Below are positions 4,290 to 10,163 of a stretch of 26,648 bases of DNA, one piece after another. Every line of letters begins with the position of its first letter. Positions within the stretch are counted from its first letter, which is position 1. The stretch is from a virus. The notes under the pieces are model-generated. The model did not search any database, had not been told where the DNA came from, and worked only from the letters and a program-made list of their open reading frames with translations. The DNA is taken from the UHGV virus genome UHGV-0191547; one strand, 5' to 3'. A program made the position numbers and the translations under genes.

Positions 4290-6629
4290 ATGGCTACCAG
4301 TGTAGGTACAATTTATTACGAAGTTGATGCAAAAACTGGTCAACTTCTCGTTGCACAACGACAGGCAGACCAGGCCTTTGACCGTATAGAGCGCGGCGCA
4401 AAACAGGCTGACCGCCAGGTAAACACCCTGAAAACATCCATCAAGGCACTGACCAGGGTTATCCATTTGCTAATTGCTGCCGAGGCTGTGCGCCAATTTA
4501 TGGATATGGCGGAGCAAGCCAAAATGCTTCGCGTAAAAATCAAATTGCTTACAGGTGAAGCGGAGGCAACGGAACGGGTTTTCAACAGACTGAAAGAAAT
4601 ATCAAAAGAAACAGGCCAAAGCCTCAAGGATACTGGTGCCCTGTGGCAAGGTCTTGCTATATCGCTAAAAAACACATCCGCCACAGAAGGCCAGGTGCTC
4701 AACCTGGTCAGCACGCTGCAAAAACTTGGTAACTTGGGCGGCGTGTCTGCGGAACAACTATCAAACTCCATGCTTCAGTTCCGCCAGGCTATTGATGCTG
4801 GCGTGTTGCAGGCGGAAGAGTTCAACTCAATACGTGATAACACCCCAACAATCATACAGGAAATGGCCCGACAGATGGGGTTATCTATGGGGCAGTTCCG
4901 CGCCGAAATGCTGGACGGCAAGATCACGGCTGAAAGGATGCTCAACGCGATCCAGGCGGCTACGCAGGAAACAAACGAGAAGTTTGCACAGTTACCGCGC
5001 ACGTCCGGTATGGCTTTTAATGAGCTTAAAGTCGAGGTGATGGGACTTGTCGAACAACTTGATGATCTTTTCGGCATATCAGATGGCGTTGTGTCAGCTA
5101 TCGACTTAATAACTGGTGGCGTTGAGGGATTAGGTAAAGGCGCAAAATTCGCCGCAACCTGTTTCAATACACTAAAAACGGCTGGCAGTGAGTTTATCGA
5201 CATGTTTGATGATGTTGCTGTTAAAGCTGGTGAGGTGGCGGAAGAGATTATCAGGATGGTAACGCCAATCAAAGCGCTAATGGATGGCTACAAATGGATG
5301 AAGGAGATCATTGATAAACGCAAGAATGAGCTAAACAGCAACAACGAAAAGAAATTCGGCCCTACAGTCGGTAAGGTCATGACGTTTGCAAATGACATCA
5401 AAAATGCGACCGCCGCTTATGATGAGTTTATGCAGAAACAGGGTGAGGCTGATGACGGCAAGATCACCGGATTCGATCAGCCAGTTGGCAAGCCGAAAAA
5501 AGGGAAAAAAGACAAGAAATCTGAAGCTGATCGGCTTGGTGATGAAGGCATAAAAGTATCCGACCAGTACAACAAAGACGCCGCAGCTATGCGCAAAGCG
5601 TTAGAGAACGGCAAGGCCATTGATGCTGCATTCGCCCAGGGTAAAATCACTCTCCTTGAGTACCGCGCCGCGCAAAAAGGGATAGGTAAGGAACTGAAGG
5701 AAGAATTAGCGCAAATTCCGGTAGATGAATTGCGTGATAAATGGGCGCAAATAGTAAGCCCGATGGATCAGCTTAAAGGTGAGGTTGACCCTATCCAGCA
5801 GGTGCAGAATGAATGGGCCGTCCGTAAGCAAATGCTTATCGACCTGGGCGTTACTGAAGCGCAACAGAAACAGGAACTGTTAGCCTATGAGCAACAGATC
5901 CGTGATCTGAAGTGGGAACAGTGGCAGGCACAAAGCGATACAAACGGCCTTATCGGTGATTGCGTTAATGGCCTAAAAGGTGGTATGAGCAATGCACTTG
6001 TTGGCCTGTTAAATGGTACTCAATCATTGAGTGATGTTTTTGCTAACTTAGGCAGCAATATCCTCGGGAATATCGGTAACAGGCTTTCAGACATAGCTGC
6101 AAACTGGATAGCAGATCAGATCATGATGGAAACGCAAAGCAAAGCGACTCAGGCAAGTACCACGGCGGGCGCGGTAGCGGCGCAAGGCCAGATTGCTGCG
6201 GCGGCGGCCCCGGCGGCGGCGGCAACAGCGGCGTCAACTGGCGGCGCATGGGCGGCGGCTGGTTCTGCGGCACTCACTGCGATCATGTCGCTGGCTACGT
6301 CAATTTTCGGCGGCGGTCGCTTTAATGGTGGTAGCGTTATTGGTGGCAATATGTACCGCGTAGGGGAACACAACAGGCCGGAGCTATTCCAGACATCTAA
6401 CGGAAATCAATATATGATCCCAGGCGAGAATGGCAGGGTTATTCCTGGGCGTGATATTGGCGGTGGCGGCGGCATTAGTATGCCTGTCAATATCAACATT
6501 CAGACCACAAACGGATTTAGCGACGAAGACAGTCGCAGACTTGAGCAAACAATGGAACGTGTAGCAATGAAGATGATAACAAGGGAATCACAAAGACCTG
6601 GAGGAATATTGCAACCGCGCCGCAAATAA
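4290..6629 (+). CDS. Tail tape measure protein
   Basis: 779 aa, alpha-helical N-terminal two thirds, Ala/Gly-rich low-complexity tract (AAAAPAAAATAAS), located between chaperone and gpM homologue. Confidence 0.9.
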   Translation: MATSVGTIYYEVDAKTGQLLVAQRQADQAFDRIERGAKQADRQVNTLKTSIKALTRVIHLLIAAEAVRQFMDMAEQAKMLRVKIKLLTGEAEATERVFNRLKEISKETGQSLKDTGALWQGLAISLKNTSATEGQVLNLVSTLQKLGNLGGVSAEQLSNSMLQFRQAIDAGVLQAEEFNSIRDNTPTIIQEMARQMGLSMGQFRAEMLDGKITAERMLNAIQAATQETNEKFAQLPRTSGMAFNELKVEVMGLVEQLDDLFGISDGVVSAIDLITGGVEGLGKGAKFAATCFNTLKTAGSEFIDMFDDVAVKAGEVAEEIIRMVTPIKALMDGYKWMKEIIDKRKNELNSNNEKKFGPTVGKVMTFANDIKNATAAYDEFMQKQGEADDGKITGFDQPVGKPKKGKKDKKSEADRLGDEGIKVSDQYNKDAAAMRKALENGKAIDAAFAQGKITLLEYRAAQKGIGKELKEELAQIPVDELRDKWAQIVSPMDQLKGEVDPIQQVQNEWAVRKQMLIDLGVTEAQQKQELLAYEQQIRDLKWEQWQAQSDTNGLIGDCVNGLKGGMSNALVGLLNGTQSLSDVFANLGSNILGNIGNRLSDIAANWIADQIMMETQSKATQASTTAGAVAAQGQIAAAAAPAAAATAASTGGAWAAAGSAALTAIMSLATSIFGGGRFNGGSVIGGNMYRVGEHNRPELFQTSNGNQYMIPGENGRVIPGRDIGGGGGISMPVNINIQTTNGFSDEDSRRLEQTMERVAMKMITRESQRPGGILQPRRK

Positions 6630-6635
6630 ACGAAA

Positions 6636-6663
6636 CCCCGGTACAATGCCGGGGTTATCTTTT
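6636..6663. terminator. Rho-independent terminator after the tape-measure gene
   Basis: CCCCGG-tacaatg-CCGGGG hairpin followed by TTATCTTTT. Confidence 0.6.
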
Positions 6664-6838
6664 AGTTATTCTCAAAACTTGTATATCCTCTTTCAATTTT
6701 CCCGCCTCTTACACTTCTTGCAAATACTGCATCATTATGTTTGAAAAATGGTTCAGTATATGTGTCTCCTTTACTATCCATCCATTTCACGATCCAGGCT
6801 ATACGTTTTACATTGCTTTTATTTGCCTGGTTTTTCAT
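6662..6838 (-). CDS. Possible small protein (58 aa), third gene of cassette B
   Basis: Hand-translated - strand ORF MKNQANKSNVKRIAWIVKWMDSKGDTYTEPFFKHNDAVFARSVRGGKIERGYTSFENN with RBS GGAGGAAAATAAA before the ATG. Confidence 0.3.
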   Translation of the reverse strand: MKNQANKSNVKRIAWIVKWMDSKGDTYTEPFFKHNDAVFARSVRGGKIERGYTSFENN

Positions 6839-6956
6839 TTTATTTTCCTCCGCAAATTACAATCTTCCGTTTCTGGCTATATAGCTGCGAGAAAACATCA
6901 CCAACCAAATATTCCAGATCTCCCTCCAGGTGAATTTATCGTCCTCCATACCCACC

Positions 6957-7211
6957 TCACTTATGGCAACCGCGAACGCCAGACAATTCATTGAATTTAT
7001 GGTGTTCAACAATCACCCACTCTTTCAGATCCTGGCTATAGACTCGCCAGTCTAAATTGGCGCGGAAGGCGTAGCCGTAACCGTCTTTCAATTTTTTGGG
7101 TGACGCATTCTTGTTTAAAAACGCGTTCAAAAGTTCCTTTGCTTTTTTGACTACATGTCCCGGCGCGTTTTTCTGTGCTTTCAGATTTTTGTCAATCGCT
7201 ACCAGTTTCAT
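6957..7211 (-). CDS. Small protein with RelE/ParE-like toxin signature (candidate mRNA interferase)
   Basis: 84 aa; C-terminal KKLKDGYGYAFRANLDWRVYSQDLKEWVIVEHHKF resembles the RelE/ParE core pattern kLkG..g.yelRvgdyRviY....ilrigHRk recalled from memory. Confidence 0.4.
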   Translation of the reverse strand: MKLVAIDKNLKAQKNAPGHVVKKAKELLNAFLNKNASPKKLKDGYGYAFRANLDWRVYSQDLKEWVIVEHHKFNELSGVRGCHK

Positions 7212-7228
7212 AACTCACCCCATCATCC

Positions 7229-7384
7229 TTAGTTAAGTGCCTTCAGGAAGAAGTCCCGGTATTCATCTTCTTTTGCATTCATCATGAATTGACCGTATTT
7301 GAATGCGTCGTCGAAACCCTTAACGATTGCTATTTCCACTTGTTCGAATGCGTTGTTTAGCATTACCACTACATAGCGTTTCAT
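7229..7384 (-). CDS. Small protein (51 aa) upstream of the RelE/ParE-like gene; possible antitoxin partner
   Basis: Internal start MKRYVVVM chosen over the ORF-track start at 7459 because it has a strong RBS (GAAGGAGG, 6 nt spacing); the 7459 ATG lies inside the conserved promoter element. Confidence 0.4.
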   Translation of the reverse strand: MKRYVVVMLNNAFEQVEIAIVKGFDDAFKYGQFMMNAKEDEYRDFFLKALN

Positions 7385-7425
7385 TTTGGGCCTCCTTCGT
7401 TGGTACTGCTTTTCTTCTTGCTTTC

Positions 7426-7454
7426 TATATACATCTTGATGCGTGATATGTGAA
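7426..7454 (-). promoter_or_regulatory. Candidate sigma70 promoter for cassette B (TTCACA-N17-TATATA) with upstream CAAAATGG element
   Basis: - strand reads CAAAATGGC-TTCACA-17 nt-TATATA; 17 of 18 nt identical to the cassette A element at 4233-4250. Confidence 0.4.
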
Positions 7455-7553
7455 GCCATTTTGTAAACTAGCTATAATCATTGTGATGAAGATCTCATTT
7501 TTTGCGTAGAATCGCGTAAAAGTATATACAAAATGTAAATTATAGGGGGATTT

Positions 7554-7907
7554 ATGCCTGAAGTGTTCCGATGGACACCACAAAGAAGCTACAGCGTAAA
7601 CAGTGAGCCTAACGTGTCTGTCATTAAGCTGGGTGATGGGTATGAACAGCGCCAGACAAAAGGGATTAACCCTTTACTTGATAGCTACAGCCTGGTTTTT
7701 AAAGGCACAAGCGCCGGATGCGGTGACGCCGGAAACGTGGCGCTCCAAGTTGACGCATTTTTAAGGGCGCGTTGCGCGGTCGAGGCGTTTTACTGGACTC
7801 CATCAACTGACGGGGTGCAAAGGCTTTTTGTATGCAGAAAGTGGAGCATGACGAAAGACGGCCCGGTATGCACGCTAAACGCAACTTTTGAGCAAGTTGT
7901 CAATTAA
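7554..7907 (+). CDS. M: Minor tail protein M
   Basis: 117 aa; FRWTP...GDGYEQR and C-terminal ATFEQVVN match the lambda gpM pattern (recalled ...FSAEFEQVVN). Confidence 0.85.
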   Translation: MPEVFRWTPQRSYSVNSEPNVSVIKLGDGYEQRQTKGINPLLDSYSLVFKGTSAGCGDAGNVALQVDAFLRARCAVEAFYWTPSTDGVQRLFVCRKWSMTKDGPVCTLNATFEQVVN

Positions 7908-7920
7908 TGGAGGTGTCAAT

Positions 7921-8106
7921 ATGTATGCTATTTGTGTAGTGGACCGCACGGGCGCTTTTACATTGTTTGACGACTATGAAATCAACGATCTTACTGTAAA
8001 GGCTGATAATGGCGAGATCTGGTATCTTCATGATGTTGGTGACGGGTATGTCGGATGCAGATCGAGAGAGGGTAGGGAAGTTTTATTTTTACTTGATGGC
8101 GTATAA
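7921..8106 (+). CDS. Small hypothetical protein (61 aa) inserted between M and L in sense orientation
   Basis: Start MYAICVV with RBS GGAGGTG; followed directly by a strong hairpin terminator; lambda has no gene here. Confidence 0.4.
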   Translation: MYAICVVDRTGAFTLFDDYEINDLTVKADNGEIWYLHDVGDGYVGCRSREGREVLFLLDGV

Positions 8107-8111
8107 ACACG

Positions 8112-8140
8112 ACCCCGCGCGAAGCGGGGTTATTATTATT
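8112..8140. terminator. Rho-independent terminator (CCCCGC-gcgaa-GCGGGG then TTATTATTATT)
   Basis: Hairpin plus T-rich tail; 8112-8134 is the exact reverse complement of 16307-16329. Confidence 0.6.
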
Positions 8141-8252
8141 CCATTTCCATTAACGCTATATTTTCTGCTATCGTTTTCCAGTCCAGATCTACAGCATGAA
8201 CACCAAATACTATCAATCCCATTGCGATTAGTGCTAAAACTTCGATTTTCAT
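8136..8252 (-). CDS. Possible small hydrophobic peptide (38 aa), last gene of cassette C
   Basis: Hand-translated MKIEVLALIAMGLIVFGVHAVDLDWKTIAENIALMEME with GTGAGG RBS; one predicted hydrophobic helix. Confidence 0.25.
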   Translation of the reverse strand: MKIEVLALIAMGLIVFGVHAVDLDWKTIAENIALMEME

Positions 8253-8343
8253 AATCAACCTCACTTAATTAAGAAAGGCATAAACGATGGCAATCGCGCC
8301 AGCCACTACCAAAACATTTCGATCACTTCGTCTACTTTATTGA

Positions 8344-8547
8344 TTAAGGTAACTCCACTTCGTTAAATGTAACAAGCACCCCTTGATTTTCTTTATTTAT
8401 AATTATGAAGGCATTAATTGAAGGCAGACATCTTTCCACGCGGTAAACGTCACCAATATCTAAACTGTAATATTCTGTTAATTCTCTATTGTTCCCTTTA
8501 GCAAAACCCGTAAACCTAACCATTTTTTGACCGTCGTACTTTAACAT
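8344..8547 (-). CDS. Hypothetical protein (67 aa), cassette C
   Basis: - strand ORF with AGGA RBS, tightly packed with neighbours; AT-rich. Confidence 0.45.
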   Translation of the reverse strand: MLKYDGQKMVRFTGFAKGNNRELTEYYSLDIGDVYRVERCLPSINAFIIINKENQGVLVTFNEVELP

Positions 8548-8555
8548 ATACAGTC

Positions 8556-8804
8556 CTATAGGTTATCACGCAGATAATTAACGCCTTTGTCAGTGACGAA
8601 TGAGTGATTAACCTGGTTTTCATCCGTCATGATGATGAATGACTTTTCCTGTAGGTATTTCGCTTTTGGGTACAGCGTTAAACAGACCTGGTACAGTATC
8701 CCGCGCTCAATCAGCAAATCAATAAATTCGTGCTCATGATAACCGACGAGGCGGGCGGCTTGTTTCAACGTGTACACATAATCGCCGTGATTGCGCCGCC
8801 CCAT
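8556..8804 (-). CDS. Hypothetical protein (82 aa), cassette C; possible helix-turn-helix
   Basis: Segment YTLKQAARLVGYHEHEFIDLLIERGIL has a helix-turn-helix-like pattern; no family recognised. Confidence 0.45.
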   Translation of the reverse strand: MGRRNHGDYVYTLKQAARLVGYHEHEFIDLLIERGILYQVCLTLYPKAKYLQEKSFIIMTDENQVNHSFVTDKGVNYLRDNL

Positions 8805-8813
8805 GTTGCCGCC

Positions 8814-9161
8814 TTATTTATCGAATGCGCCCAGGTTATCTATGCAGAAGTCTTTCGCAGCTTTTTCGTATTCGCGTTTTGCTTGCGGATCGTCTGCCGG
8901 GAAACCTTTTGCGTGTATTTCACCAGGGCAAGACTGATCCATAGAATCAGCAAATTCAACATTGACGTTAAAGTTAATATCTTTCGGATTCATGTTTTCC
9001 ACCTCATCAATTATCTGCACCGGATTAGCGGCATATTTCACTGGATGGCCTAAACTACATTCAAGAATCCTTCCTTCTTCCAAAGCTGCCTCTTCGCTAT
9101 CAAATAATCCGAAACACTCCTTGCAACCACTTAACCACACATCAAGACTATATTTTTGCAT
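8814..9161 (-). CDS. Hypothetical Cys-containing acidic protein (115 aa), cassette C
   Basis: - strand ORF with GAGAGG RBS; CKEC...C...SCPGEIH cysteines suggest possible metal binding. Confidence 0.5.
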   Translation of the reverse strand: MQKYSLDVWLSGCKECFGLFDSEEAALEEGRILECSLGHPVKYAANPVQIIDEVENMNPKDINFNVNVEFADSMDQSCPGEIHAKGFPADDPQAKREYEKAAKDFCIDNLGAFDK

Positions 9162-9173
9162 TTCGTTAACCTC

Positions 9174-9329
9174 TCATTTGACAGGTTCGATTCTGTACCC
9201 CAAAACGCGTTCGTCTTCAGCGAGTAATAGCGCGTCAGTCAGTGCCTCGCCTTCGTCTTTATACAGAGCTACAGTCATTTCCCTGCCACCTGACAGGAAT
9301 ACCTTCAACCTCCACACCTTATCAGCCAT
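9174..9329 (-). CDS. Hypothetical small protein (51 aa from MADKVWRL), first gene of cassette C
   Basis: Internal start preferred (RBS GGAGGTG, 6 nt spacing); the ORF-track start at 9404 overlaps the predicted -35. Confidence 0.4.
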   Translation of the reverse strand: MADKVWRLKVFLSGGREMTVALYKDEGEALTDALLLAEDERVLGYRIEPVK

Positions 9330-9375
9330 CTCACACCTCCGCGCCATTTTGTTAACTGTGCTTCCGTTTGAGTAA

Positions 9376-9404
9376 AATATACATATTGTATAAACCGCGA
9401 TCAA
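9376..9404 (-). promoter_or_regulatory. Candidate sigma70 promoter for cassette C (TTGATC-N17-TATATT) with upstream CCAAAATGG element
   Basis: - strand reads CCAAAATGGA-TTGATC-17 nt-TATATT; same architecture as the cassette A and B elements. Confidence 0.35.
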
Positions 9405-9458
9405 TCCATTTTGGTATGATTTAGCGTGACGCAGATCACAAAATCAGAAGGTGAGAAA

Positions 9459-10163
9459 ATGCGCAATATACCTACAGAGATGATTATTGATTCCGTGGAC
9501 GCTGGTGTGGGCGCGGTGATTGACTTGTTCGAACTGGACTTGTCGCCCCTGGGTGGCGAGGTTATCCGCTTCCATTCCGGCGCGAATGGCTATTACGGCC
9601 CGGTTATCTGGAAGGGATTAACTTACAACAGCTACCCGATCGAGGCTACTGGCTTCGAAATGAAAAACGAGGGCGTTTATTCGCGGCCTCAAATGGTTGT
9701 AGCCAATATCGGCGGGCTAATCACAGGGATGAATAACGACTTCAACGACCTGCGAGGAATGAAGGTTACGCGCCGCCAGGTGGAAGTAAAATACCTGGAC
9801 GCCGTTAACTTCCCAAACGGCAATCCAGACGCAGATCCATCTATTGAGGCTGTATCTTTTTACGTCGTGGAGGCCATGAGCGAGGAAACAGCGGATCAGG
9901 TGCAATATGAGCTGTCAACGCCAATTGATGCTGATAAGGCCGTTATCCCTGGGCGCACCATCCTTGCTGACGTTTGCCAGTGGCAATACAGAGGCGACGG
10001 GTGTATGTACGCTGGCGGACCAGTAGCAAACGATAAAGACGAGCCGACAAGCGATCCTAAAGCCGACAGATGCAGCCACCGTCTAAGCGGTTGTCGTTTG
10101 CGTTTCCCGCGTCCAAATCCGTTACCGATTTCCTGTTTCCCTGGTTCCAGTAAGGTAGGTTAA
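9459..10163 (+). CDS. L: Minor tail protein L
   Basis: Start at MRNIPTEM (RBS AGGTGAG); VTRRQVEVKYLDAVNF and PGRTILADVCQWQYRGDGC match recalled lambda gpL blocks. Confidence 0.85.
   Translation: MRNIPTEMIIDSVDAGVGAVIDLFELDLSPLGGEVIRFHSGANGYYGPVIWKGLTYNSYPIEATGFEMKNEGVYSRPQMVVANIGGLITGMNNDFNDLRGMKVTRRQVEVKYLDAVNFPNGNPDADPSIEAVSFYVVEAMSEETADQVQYELSTPIDADKAVIPGRTILADVCQWQYRGDGCMYAGGPVANDKDEPTSDPKADRCSHRLSGCRLRFPRPNPLPISCFPGSSKVG

Follow-up and report, generated by a model that had tools for sequence, protein, structure and literature searches.

We describe a small cassette of genes in a temperate coliphage that is best read as a moron, i.e., a self-contained leftward operon among rightward late genes, and whose one constant gene encodes a protein of the RelE/ParE superfamily, here called p84. 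Each of the neighbours of p84 can be lost from related loci, and p84 probably does not belong to a classic toxin-antitoxin pair, because related phages keep p84 intact without the gene for the supposed antidote. The interpretation that we favour, giving it somewhat less than an even chance, is that of a prophage moron centred on an effector of the RelE type that acts alone and whose small partners are optional. The DNA analysed, referred to below as the window, is the whole stretch of 26,648 nucleotides from the virus genome UHGV-0191547, and all coordinates refer to it.

The window is the region of the tail genes in a temperate coliphage of the mEp-immI type and shares 94-96% identity with Escherichia phage MagusPhagus and 80-86% identity with phages mEp010, mEp044, mEp554, mEp013, mEp515 and mEp021. 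The mEp-immI-type group has been described previously (PMC11893012), and the cassette genes are not discussed in that article or its supplements. The cassette consists of four minus-strand genes, encoding proteins of 51, 84, 30 and 58 aa, and is located between the tape measure gene (4290-6629, plus strand) and the minor tail gene M (7554-7907, plus strand), in agreement with the location given in an earlier note on this DNA. That note had counted three small minus-strand genes; the 51-, 84- and 58-aa ORFs are indeed present at the coordinates it gave, and the count has to be raised to four by the 30-aa gene that it missed. The cassette has its own promoter and terminator, runs antisense to the tail operon and varies in content among relatives, which display five combinations of the four genes as well as extra cargo, the cargo 3' of p84 differing between them. 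In these respects it resembles the morons of lambdoid and HK97-like phages, which likewise have an independent promoter and terminator, are oriented against the late operon, are inserted between conserved tail genes and differ in gene content among relatives. It differs from them in that the constant gene encodes a toxin fold and not a membrane or exclusion protein. A neighbouring leftward cassette also begins with a 51-aa gene, which was considered as a possible paralogue of the first gene of the present operon and rejected as it is not a paralogue.

The order of the genes from promoter to terminator is p51, p84, p30 and p58. The first gene, p51 (7229-7384, minus strand), encodes an acidic protein of 51 aa with a pI of 5.1 and carries GGAGG six bases before its ATG; the longer ORF, of 76 aa, extends into the promoter. 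The gene for p84 (6957-7211, minus strand; 84 aa, basic, pI 9.9) follows after a gap of 17 nt, and one promoter and one terminator serve both. Judging from this layout, p51 and p84 appear to be two small, adjacent, co-transcribed genes, which is one of the hallmarks of type II toxin-antitoxin modules. The third gene, p30 (6857-6949, minus strand), encodes the tryptophan-rich 30-aa peptide MEDDKFTWREIWNIWLVMFSRSYIARNGRL and starts 7 nt past the stop codon of p84, behind GAGGTGGG, which is a good ribosome-binding site. It is probably translationally coupled to p84 and is annotated as a 93-nt CDS in MagusPhagus and mEp010. The last gene of the operon, p58 (6662-6838, minus strand), encodes a basic protein of 58 aa and is optional cargo. 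Pairwise dN/dS across relatives amounts to 0.047 for p51, 0.088 for p84, 0.047 for p30 (with dS of 1.8) and 0.13 for p58, the tail gene M having a value of 0.076. Ratios of 0.05-0.13 for all four ORFs indicate purifying selection and thus real genes rather than chance ORFs.

A second hallmark of type II modules, namely an antitoxin from a recognisable antitoxin or DNA-binding family together with an operator palindrome at the promoter, was not detected in family searches with p51, p30 and p58 or in a search for inverted repeats over 7380-7560. The p51 protein matches phrog_29810, a family without assigned function, and has no antitoxin, DNA-binding or solved-protein match in Pfam, NCBIfam, PADLOC or the PDB sequences. 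Neither p30 nor p58 matches any family above threshold in Pfam, NCBIfam, PADLOC, PHROG or PDB searches, p58 having only the sub-threshold matches Phage_ORF5 (E 0.004) and phrog_1670 (E 0.007); the searches of NCBIfam and PADLOC gave no match for any of the four proteins. The observation in the earlier note that no neighbour of the 84-aa protein looks like a RelB, Phd or HigA antitoxin thus holds in profile and PDB sequence searches. A search of Rfam over positions 6300-9600 yielded nothing credible, which leaves an RNA antitoxin without support.

The promoter pointed out in the earlier note is a sigma-70-like promoter on the minus strand (7426-7454), composed of TTCACA as the -35 hexamer (7449-7454), a 17-nt spacer and TATATA as the -10 hexamer (7426-7431), and further analysis bears it out. 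The pattern TTCACA-N17-TATATA has a single exact match in the window, where 0.01 would be expected by chance. An alignment of 43 distinct upstream sequences from related phages shows the hexamers and their 17-nt distance preserved and the spacer varying most of all, as would be expected if the promoter works; the hexamers and spacing are also kept in loci that have no p51. The final base of the -10 hexamer is A, which is the reason why the promoter is absent from the list produced by a generic promoter scan and which makes it a weak-consensus promoter. No inverted or direct repeats and no palindromic operator were found around it (7380-7560). The other end of the operon is marked by a bidirectional intrinsic terminator (6634-6656, both strands) with the stem AACCCCGG...CCGGGGTT and T-rich tails on both strands, which is common to the tape measure gene on the plus strand and the cassette on the minus strand; mEp010 and mEp021 likewise have an annotated terminator in this position. 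Given its own weak sigma-70 promoter and its terminator, the cassette is most likely expressed from the prophage.

The losability of the neighbours of p84 was assessed by comparing 50 loci (44 viral contigs, 3 phage records, 2 E. coli chromosomes and the window), to which 15 metagenome loci were added to make ~65. Among the 50 loci, 18 contain all four genes, 15 contain p51 and p84 only, 10 contain p51, p84 and p30, four contain p51, p84 and p58, and three contain p84, p30 and p58. Consequently, p51 is present in 47 of the 50 loci (~94%), p30 is present in 31 and absent from 19 (38%), and p58 is present in 25 and absent from 25 (50%); across the ~65 loci no neighbour is obligatory beside p84. 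The earlier note had proposed either a non-canonical toxin-antitoxin pairing or a three-component module. Neither is supported as an obligate module: p58, the proposed third component, is absent from half of the loci, no neighbour is always present, and p51, which alone among the neighbours occupies the position of a canonical antitoxin, is missing from four loci beside an intact and constrained p84.

These four loci comprise three of the 50 and a fourth from metagenomes (L033, L040/L055, which is E. coli UMNK88, and L120), and they represent at least three sequence backgrounds. In all of them the absence is clean, the promoter being joined straight to the leader of p84. The p84 genes of the p51-less loci differ from each other by 20-24 synonymous vs 3 non-synonymous changes (pN/pS ~0.03-0.1), a level of constraint which indicates that p84 has long been functional without p51. 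E. coli UMNK88 is a cultured strain with a complete genome, and its p84-bearing prophage without p51 is apparently complete, extending from a repressor gene to tail fibre genes with no pseudogenes flagged. A sensitive DNA search found no copy of p51 anywhere in the UMNK88 genome. The same search found p51 in 34 of 5,426 complete E. coli genomes; the cassette itself occurs in 35 genomes. The p51 gene, a usual yet losable partner of p84, has never been seen without p84 (41 of 41 loci). It is thus the supposed toxin gene that can stand alone, contrary to the prediction of addiction logic and to the rule for type II modules that a toxin gene is not kept without its cognate antitoxin gene. The two proteins also do not co-diverge: the p84 alleles that accompany identical p51 proteins share 100%, 67% and 62% identity, and the pairwise distances of p51 and p84 are practically uncorrelated (r = 0.09). 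In E. coli MFDS1019527, p51 is frameshifted (MKRYE, then stop), and this strain was considered as a second natural knockout of p51. It was set aside as ambiguous because an in-frame ATG located just past the stops could restart translation at Met8.

The relationship of p84 to the RelE/ParE superfamily, which the earlier note had derived from a sequence motif, is borne out by both sequence profiles and the predicted structure. The protein matches the Pfam family PF24732 ('ParE-like toxin domain') with 32.1 bits (E 1.2e-7), above the gathering cut-off of 24.4, and each of the 27 family members examined likewise exceeds the threshold for PF24732. The Pfam profiles of classical ParE, RelE, YoeB, HigB and YafQ are not matched by p84. 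None of the 27 members matches a classical ParE, RelE, YoeB or HigB family, and for the classical ParE profile this holds even when E values up to 10 are admitted. The close p84 family is narrow: a word-indexed search collected 13 clusters, and only 12 relatives were found in an exhaustive search of 1.84 billion representative proteins. A scan of one genome per species produced only a partial and doubtful match in a Faecalibacterium assembly. The motif in question, KKLKDG...EHHKF, is present at residues 39-73. It does not end the protein as the earlier note had it, since the chain continues with NELSGVRGCHK.

An AlphaFold2 model of p84 built with the 12 close homologues alone is unusable (pLDDT 47), and an alignment of 27 sequences including distant members, which is too divergent to be used for finding loci, was required for a usable model. 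The model obtained from this alignment has a pLDDT of 85.3 and a pTM of 0.73 and consists, in order, of a beta-hairpin (residues 3-13), a helix (18-32), three strands (47-50, 55-59 and 65-69) and a short helix (70-77). It adopts the compact alpha/beta architecture of the superfamily, in which an antiparallel sheet lies against an N-terminal helix, and can be superposed on solved toxins; its best structural neighbours are solved RelE, YoeB, HigB, YafQ and ParE toxins. The top Foldseek match is S. aureus YoeB with a probability of 0.96 and 26% identity over 79 columns, at an E value of only 0.045. A profile search of the PDB sequences also places YoeB first (E 0.15), whereas a single-sequence search of the PDB with p84 returns only noise (S6 kinase, hyaluronate lyase). 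Structures of ParE score below those of the RNase-type toxins against the model. Among predicted viral structures, the best matches (TM scores of 0.70-0.84) come from the jumbo phages fHe-Yen9-04 and RaK2 and bear the name 'ParE-like toxin domain-containing protein'. We consider the placement of p84 in the RelE/ParE superfamily sound, the structural support being of moderate strength. This identity is already contained in public annotation and is not new: the identification adds nothing because Pfam as well as RefSeq, where many E. coli homologues bear the name 'ParE family toxin-like protein', already label the homologues accordingly.

Conservation within the family points to a candidate active site. 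None of the 27 sequences deviates from arginine at position 56, and Arg56 aligns with the arginine of the YoeB motif HRLVY (YoeB Arg65, the equivalent of RelE Arg61). A profile comparison with single YoeB and RelE sequences was weak and served solely to confirm the register of the Arg motif. The same motif is common in ParE proteins too, and Arg56 therefore does not separate the RNase class from the ParE class. Lys39 and Lys40 are conserved, Lys40 being nearly invariant, and the last strand is followed by a conserved motif His70-x-x-Tyr/Phe73-Asn74, the form of which in the family is His-x-x-Tyr/Phe-Asn/Asp. Known catalytic residues of the superfamily are K52, K54, R61, R81 and Y87 in RelE (PMC2807027), H54, R73, D90, Y91 and H92 in HigB, E46 and H83 in YoeB, and H50 and H87 in YafQ (PMC5027501). 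Of these, RelE R81 and Y87, HigB H54, Y91 and H92 and the residues named for YoeB and YafQ are those of the general base and general acid. RelE R61, YoeB R65 and HigB R73 represent the basic residue of strand 3 that contributes to stabilisation of the transition state (PMC2807027, PMC5027501), and Arg56 occupies the position of this conserved residue. We infer that the active site of p84 would comprise Arg56, Lys39/Lys40 and His70-x-x-Tyr/Phe73-Asn74, and that the His70 and Tyr/Phe73 motif may be the catalytic equivalent of the C-terminal residues of the reference toxins. In the sequence alignment Lys39 is found at the position of Glu46, the general base of YoeB, so that the base is not conserved, and p84 is at most a putative RNase.

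Compared with the ribosome-dependent mRNA interferases RelE, YoeB, YafQ and HigB, p84 is similar in its size (84-95 aa for the whole group), its basic character, its alpha/beta fold with a three- to four-stranded sheet, the arginine kept in the third strand and the presence of a His/aromatic motif near the C-terminal end of the sheet. It is different in that the model has a beta-hairpin in place of the first helix, that lysine replaces the glutamate of YoeB, that the classical Pfam profiles are not matched, and that p84 has no partner of the RelB, YefM, DinJ or HigA type and occurs without its upstream neighbour.

Distant relatives of p84 provide a wider view of the family. Genes matching PF24732 occur in lytic jumbo phages, fHe-Yen9-04 among them. 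In RaK2, 121Q, G17 and related phages (74 phage records) they belong to extended series of small early genes; an addiction module would be of little use to a lytic jumbo phage. In temperate phages they are found in early operons, twice as the gene next to a ParB-like one on its downstream side. Members located in genomic islands have an adjacent downstream gene for a protein of ~90 aa; these genes are unrelated between subfamilies, and the arrangements may be toxin-antitoxin pairs in reverse order. The distant members have no common partner gene, and the genes 3' of them show no homology across subfamilies nor to p51, p30 or p58. The p84 subgroup from the mEp-like phages is related to the rest by membership in PF24732 and by the superposition of the RaK2 and fHe-Yen9-04 models on p84, and is distinguished by its own conserved N-terminal hairpin, by a C-terminal tail GV(R/K)G(C/A)HK, and by location in a leftward moron among tail genes instead of an early operon. 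Annotators have labelled distant members 'HigB-like', as in the Serratia phages OS31 and BZS1, or 'mRNA interferase' (for this type of labelling, see PMC7556043). A literature search found no paper naming PF24732 or 'ParE family toxin-like', and no experimentally characterised member was found in a search of the literature and databases.

Several observations count against the stand-alone reading, and some of them speak for a canonical type II pair, in which a labile acidic p51 would bind and neutralise the p84 toxin, the pair would serve prophage stabilisation or abortive infection, and p30 and p58 would be passengers. An acidic upstream protein and a basic downstream one, with fitting sizes and gene order, a 17-nt gap and a common promoter and terminator, look like the classic type II arrangement; p84 does belong to the RelE/ParE superfamily; and p51 adjoins p84 in ~94% of loci and never occurs without it. 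Some antitoxins are small and have no DNA-binding domain, an example being PaaA2 from the prophage module paaR2-paaA2-parE2, and a structure from the PaaA2 system is among the structural matches of p84. Moreover, an RNase of the RelE type that is made constitutively and not neutralised should be harmful to the lysogen, unless its selectivity is high or its expression weak. We nonetheless regard the canonical pair as unlikely. Four loci from at least three backgrounds retain the promoter and a constrained p84 without p51, the UMNK88 genome has no p51 at all, and the orphan gene is the supposed toxin, in reverse of addiction logic. In addition, p51 lacks an antitoxin or DNA-binding family match, the promoter has no palindromic operator, and p51 and p84 do not co-diverge. 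A modified version, close to what the earlier note had suggested, is a loose three-component module in which a toxic p84 needs either p51 or p30 for neutralisation. It draws on the finding that all four p51-less loci keep p30 and all p30-less loci keep p51, no locus among the ~65 being without both, on the tight constraint on p30 and its start just past the p84 stop, and on the island PF24732 genes followed by a ~90-aa gene in the manner of reverse-order toxin-antitoxin pairs. If the losses were independent, ~1 locus without both genes would be expected by chance, and its absence is not significant and neither supports nor excludes redundant neutralisation. The p51-less loci share one ancestral junction and are thus not independent samples, a toxin with two unrelated antidotes would have no precedent, and the downstream partners of distant members are unrelated to each other and to p30. 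We consider redundant neutralisation quite unlikely.

Two further alternatives concern the activity of p84 itself. As the Pfam name suggests, p84 could be a poison of DNA gyrase of the ParE type and not an RNase. Features shared with ParDE and with paaR2-paaA2-parE2 of E. coli O157:H7 are the superfamily fold, the prophage location and the 'ParE-like' labels in Pfam and RefSeq, and the three genes of the latter module offer a parallel to the three-component idea. A gyrase poison of this type would match the profile of the classical ParE family and have a ribbon-helix-helix antitoxin of the ParD type encoded upstream, neither of which was found in the profile and PDB sequence searches; ParE structures score lower than RNase-type toxins, p51 matches no ParD or PaaA2, the cassette has no regulator gene, and its partners can be missing. 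We consider this alternative very unlikely. The other alternative is that p84 has the RelE fold, has lost its toxic activity and plays another role, for example that of a regulator which binds RNA or the ribosome non-catalytically, or of a decoy for the toxin-antitoxin defences of the host. In favour of this, p84 is tolerated without a dedicated neutraliser, relatives are found in strictly lytic jumbo phages and early operons, and the general base of YoeB has no conserved counterpart. On the other hand, the Arg, Lys and His/aromatic positions conserved throughout the family resemble an active site more than a scaffold, and no positive evidence points to any specific alternative role, leaving only a slight probability for a loss of toxicity.

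The stand-alone reading, which we put a little short of even, brings together the fold of p84, its conserved residues, its independence of neighbours, the wider family, the precedent of T4 RegB and the anatomy of the moron. According to this reading, p84 would act as a stand-alone effector of the RelE/YoeB/HigB type, docking on RNA, most likely ribosome-bound mRNA, by the basic face of its beta-sheet and cleaving or blocking selected messages. The lysogen or the phage would benefit, for example because competing phages are excluded or expression is tuned. The acidic p51 and the downstream p30 would modulate p84 as dispensable partners and would not be an obligate antidote, and p58 would be unrelated cargo in a hotspot of variable genes. 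RegB of phage T4 is a phage-encoded RNase of the RelE superfamily that has no known antitoxin and serves the programme of the phage itself (PMC3014915, PMC2807027). By analogy, it appears to be the best functional counterpart for a stand-alone p84 and for the PF24732 genes of jumbo phages. RegB differs from p84 in being a 153-aa protein with an extra helix, encoded by an early gene of a virulent phage; it has no sequence relationship to p84 and is not among its structural matches.

Extending the analogy to the whole family, PF24732 proteins might be phage-borne, antitoxin-free effectors with the RelE fold which, like T4 RegB, cleave or silence selected mRNAs for takeover of the host or exclusion of competitors, and in the mEp phages p51 and p30 might be new small modulators of such an effector and not antidotes; this generalisation seems to us somewhat unlikely. 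Prophage morons, early operons and lytic jumbo phages would all be sources of the effectors so conceived.

The present case cautions that a match to a toxin fold together with a small neighbouring gene is insufficient to call a toxin-antitoxin pair, and natural variants without the neighbouring gene provided a cheap test of the pairing here. If p84 acts without an antidote, the cassette and the PF24732 family at large would be examples of phages employing the RelE fold by itself as an everyday tool, and not solely in addiction modules. If true, this would bear on the annotation of the many 'toxin-like' prophage genes and on whether they are tallied as toxin-antitoxin or defence systems.

The cassette between the tape measure gene and gene M contains a fourth gene, p30, a tryptophan-rich 30-aa reading frame (MEDDKFTWREIWNIWLVMFSRSYIARNGRL; 6857-6949, minus strand) located directly 3' of p84, the 84-aa gene of the RelE/ParE-superfamily protein, and close enough to it to permit translational coupling. 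The gene is found in 31 of the 50 related loci, where it is under very strong constraint (dN/dS 0.047 with dS of about 1.8), and searches of Pfam, NCBIfam and PADLOC returned no family match for its product. All related loci keep a direct repeat of the form TACGCG-N4-TACGC(G/A) with a 10-bp period (window 7503-7518), some 50 bp in front of the -35 element of the cassette promoter; the repeat could be a regulator-binding site.

The interval from the 84-aa gene to the tape measure terminator is a hotspot for cargo, as seen in mEp021, in the match in mEp515 and in loci L063 and L040; the cargo in relatives can be an HNH endonuclease, a zinc-ribbon protein accompanied by one of 157 aa, or a 95-aa membrane protein together with an acidic protein of 61 aa. 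A second leftward cassette (8111-9404, minus strand) lies between M, together with a small gene downstream of M, and tail gene L (9426, plus strand), with a separate bidirectional terminator at 8111-8131. Among its products are several orphan proteins and one of 82 aa that carries a KilAC/ANT antirepressor domain (8556-8804; PF03374, E = 2.3e-6). The leading gene of this cassette (9174-9329) also specifies 51 aa and was considered as a relative of p51, the upstream neighbour of p84; the two are unrelated despite their equal length.

In E. coli MFDS1019527 (NZ_CP169309.1, about 1374-1526) p51 is frameshifted and lacks an annotation, its reading frame meeting a stop after MKRYE; p84 is intact. 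Right behind the stop codons there is an ATG that corresponds, in the original frame, to Met8. Because translation could restart there, the status of this locus as a second natural p51 knockout is ambiguous.

Genes of the p84 family, PF24732, overlap the 3' end of a ParB-like gene in two unrelated elements, from Enterobacter asburiae (L004, 1897-2713) and Serratia phage OS31 (L101, 668-1701), which suggests a recurrent functional link between the two kinds of gene.

The M, p51, p84, p30 and p58 proteins encoded on a metagenomic contig (ERZ773186, NODE-1841, 16.9 kb), and likewise the C-terminal end of its tape measure protein, are 100% identical to those of the window. Comparison of the related loci L011-L054 gives p84 and p30 (window 6857-7211) synonymous divergences (dS) of 1.47 and 1.79, 2-3 times those of the flanking p51, p58 and M (0.62, 0.57 and 0.73). 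This excess points to p84 and p30 being old allelic lineages that have been shuffled among phage backbones by recombination.
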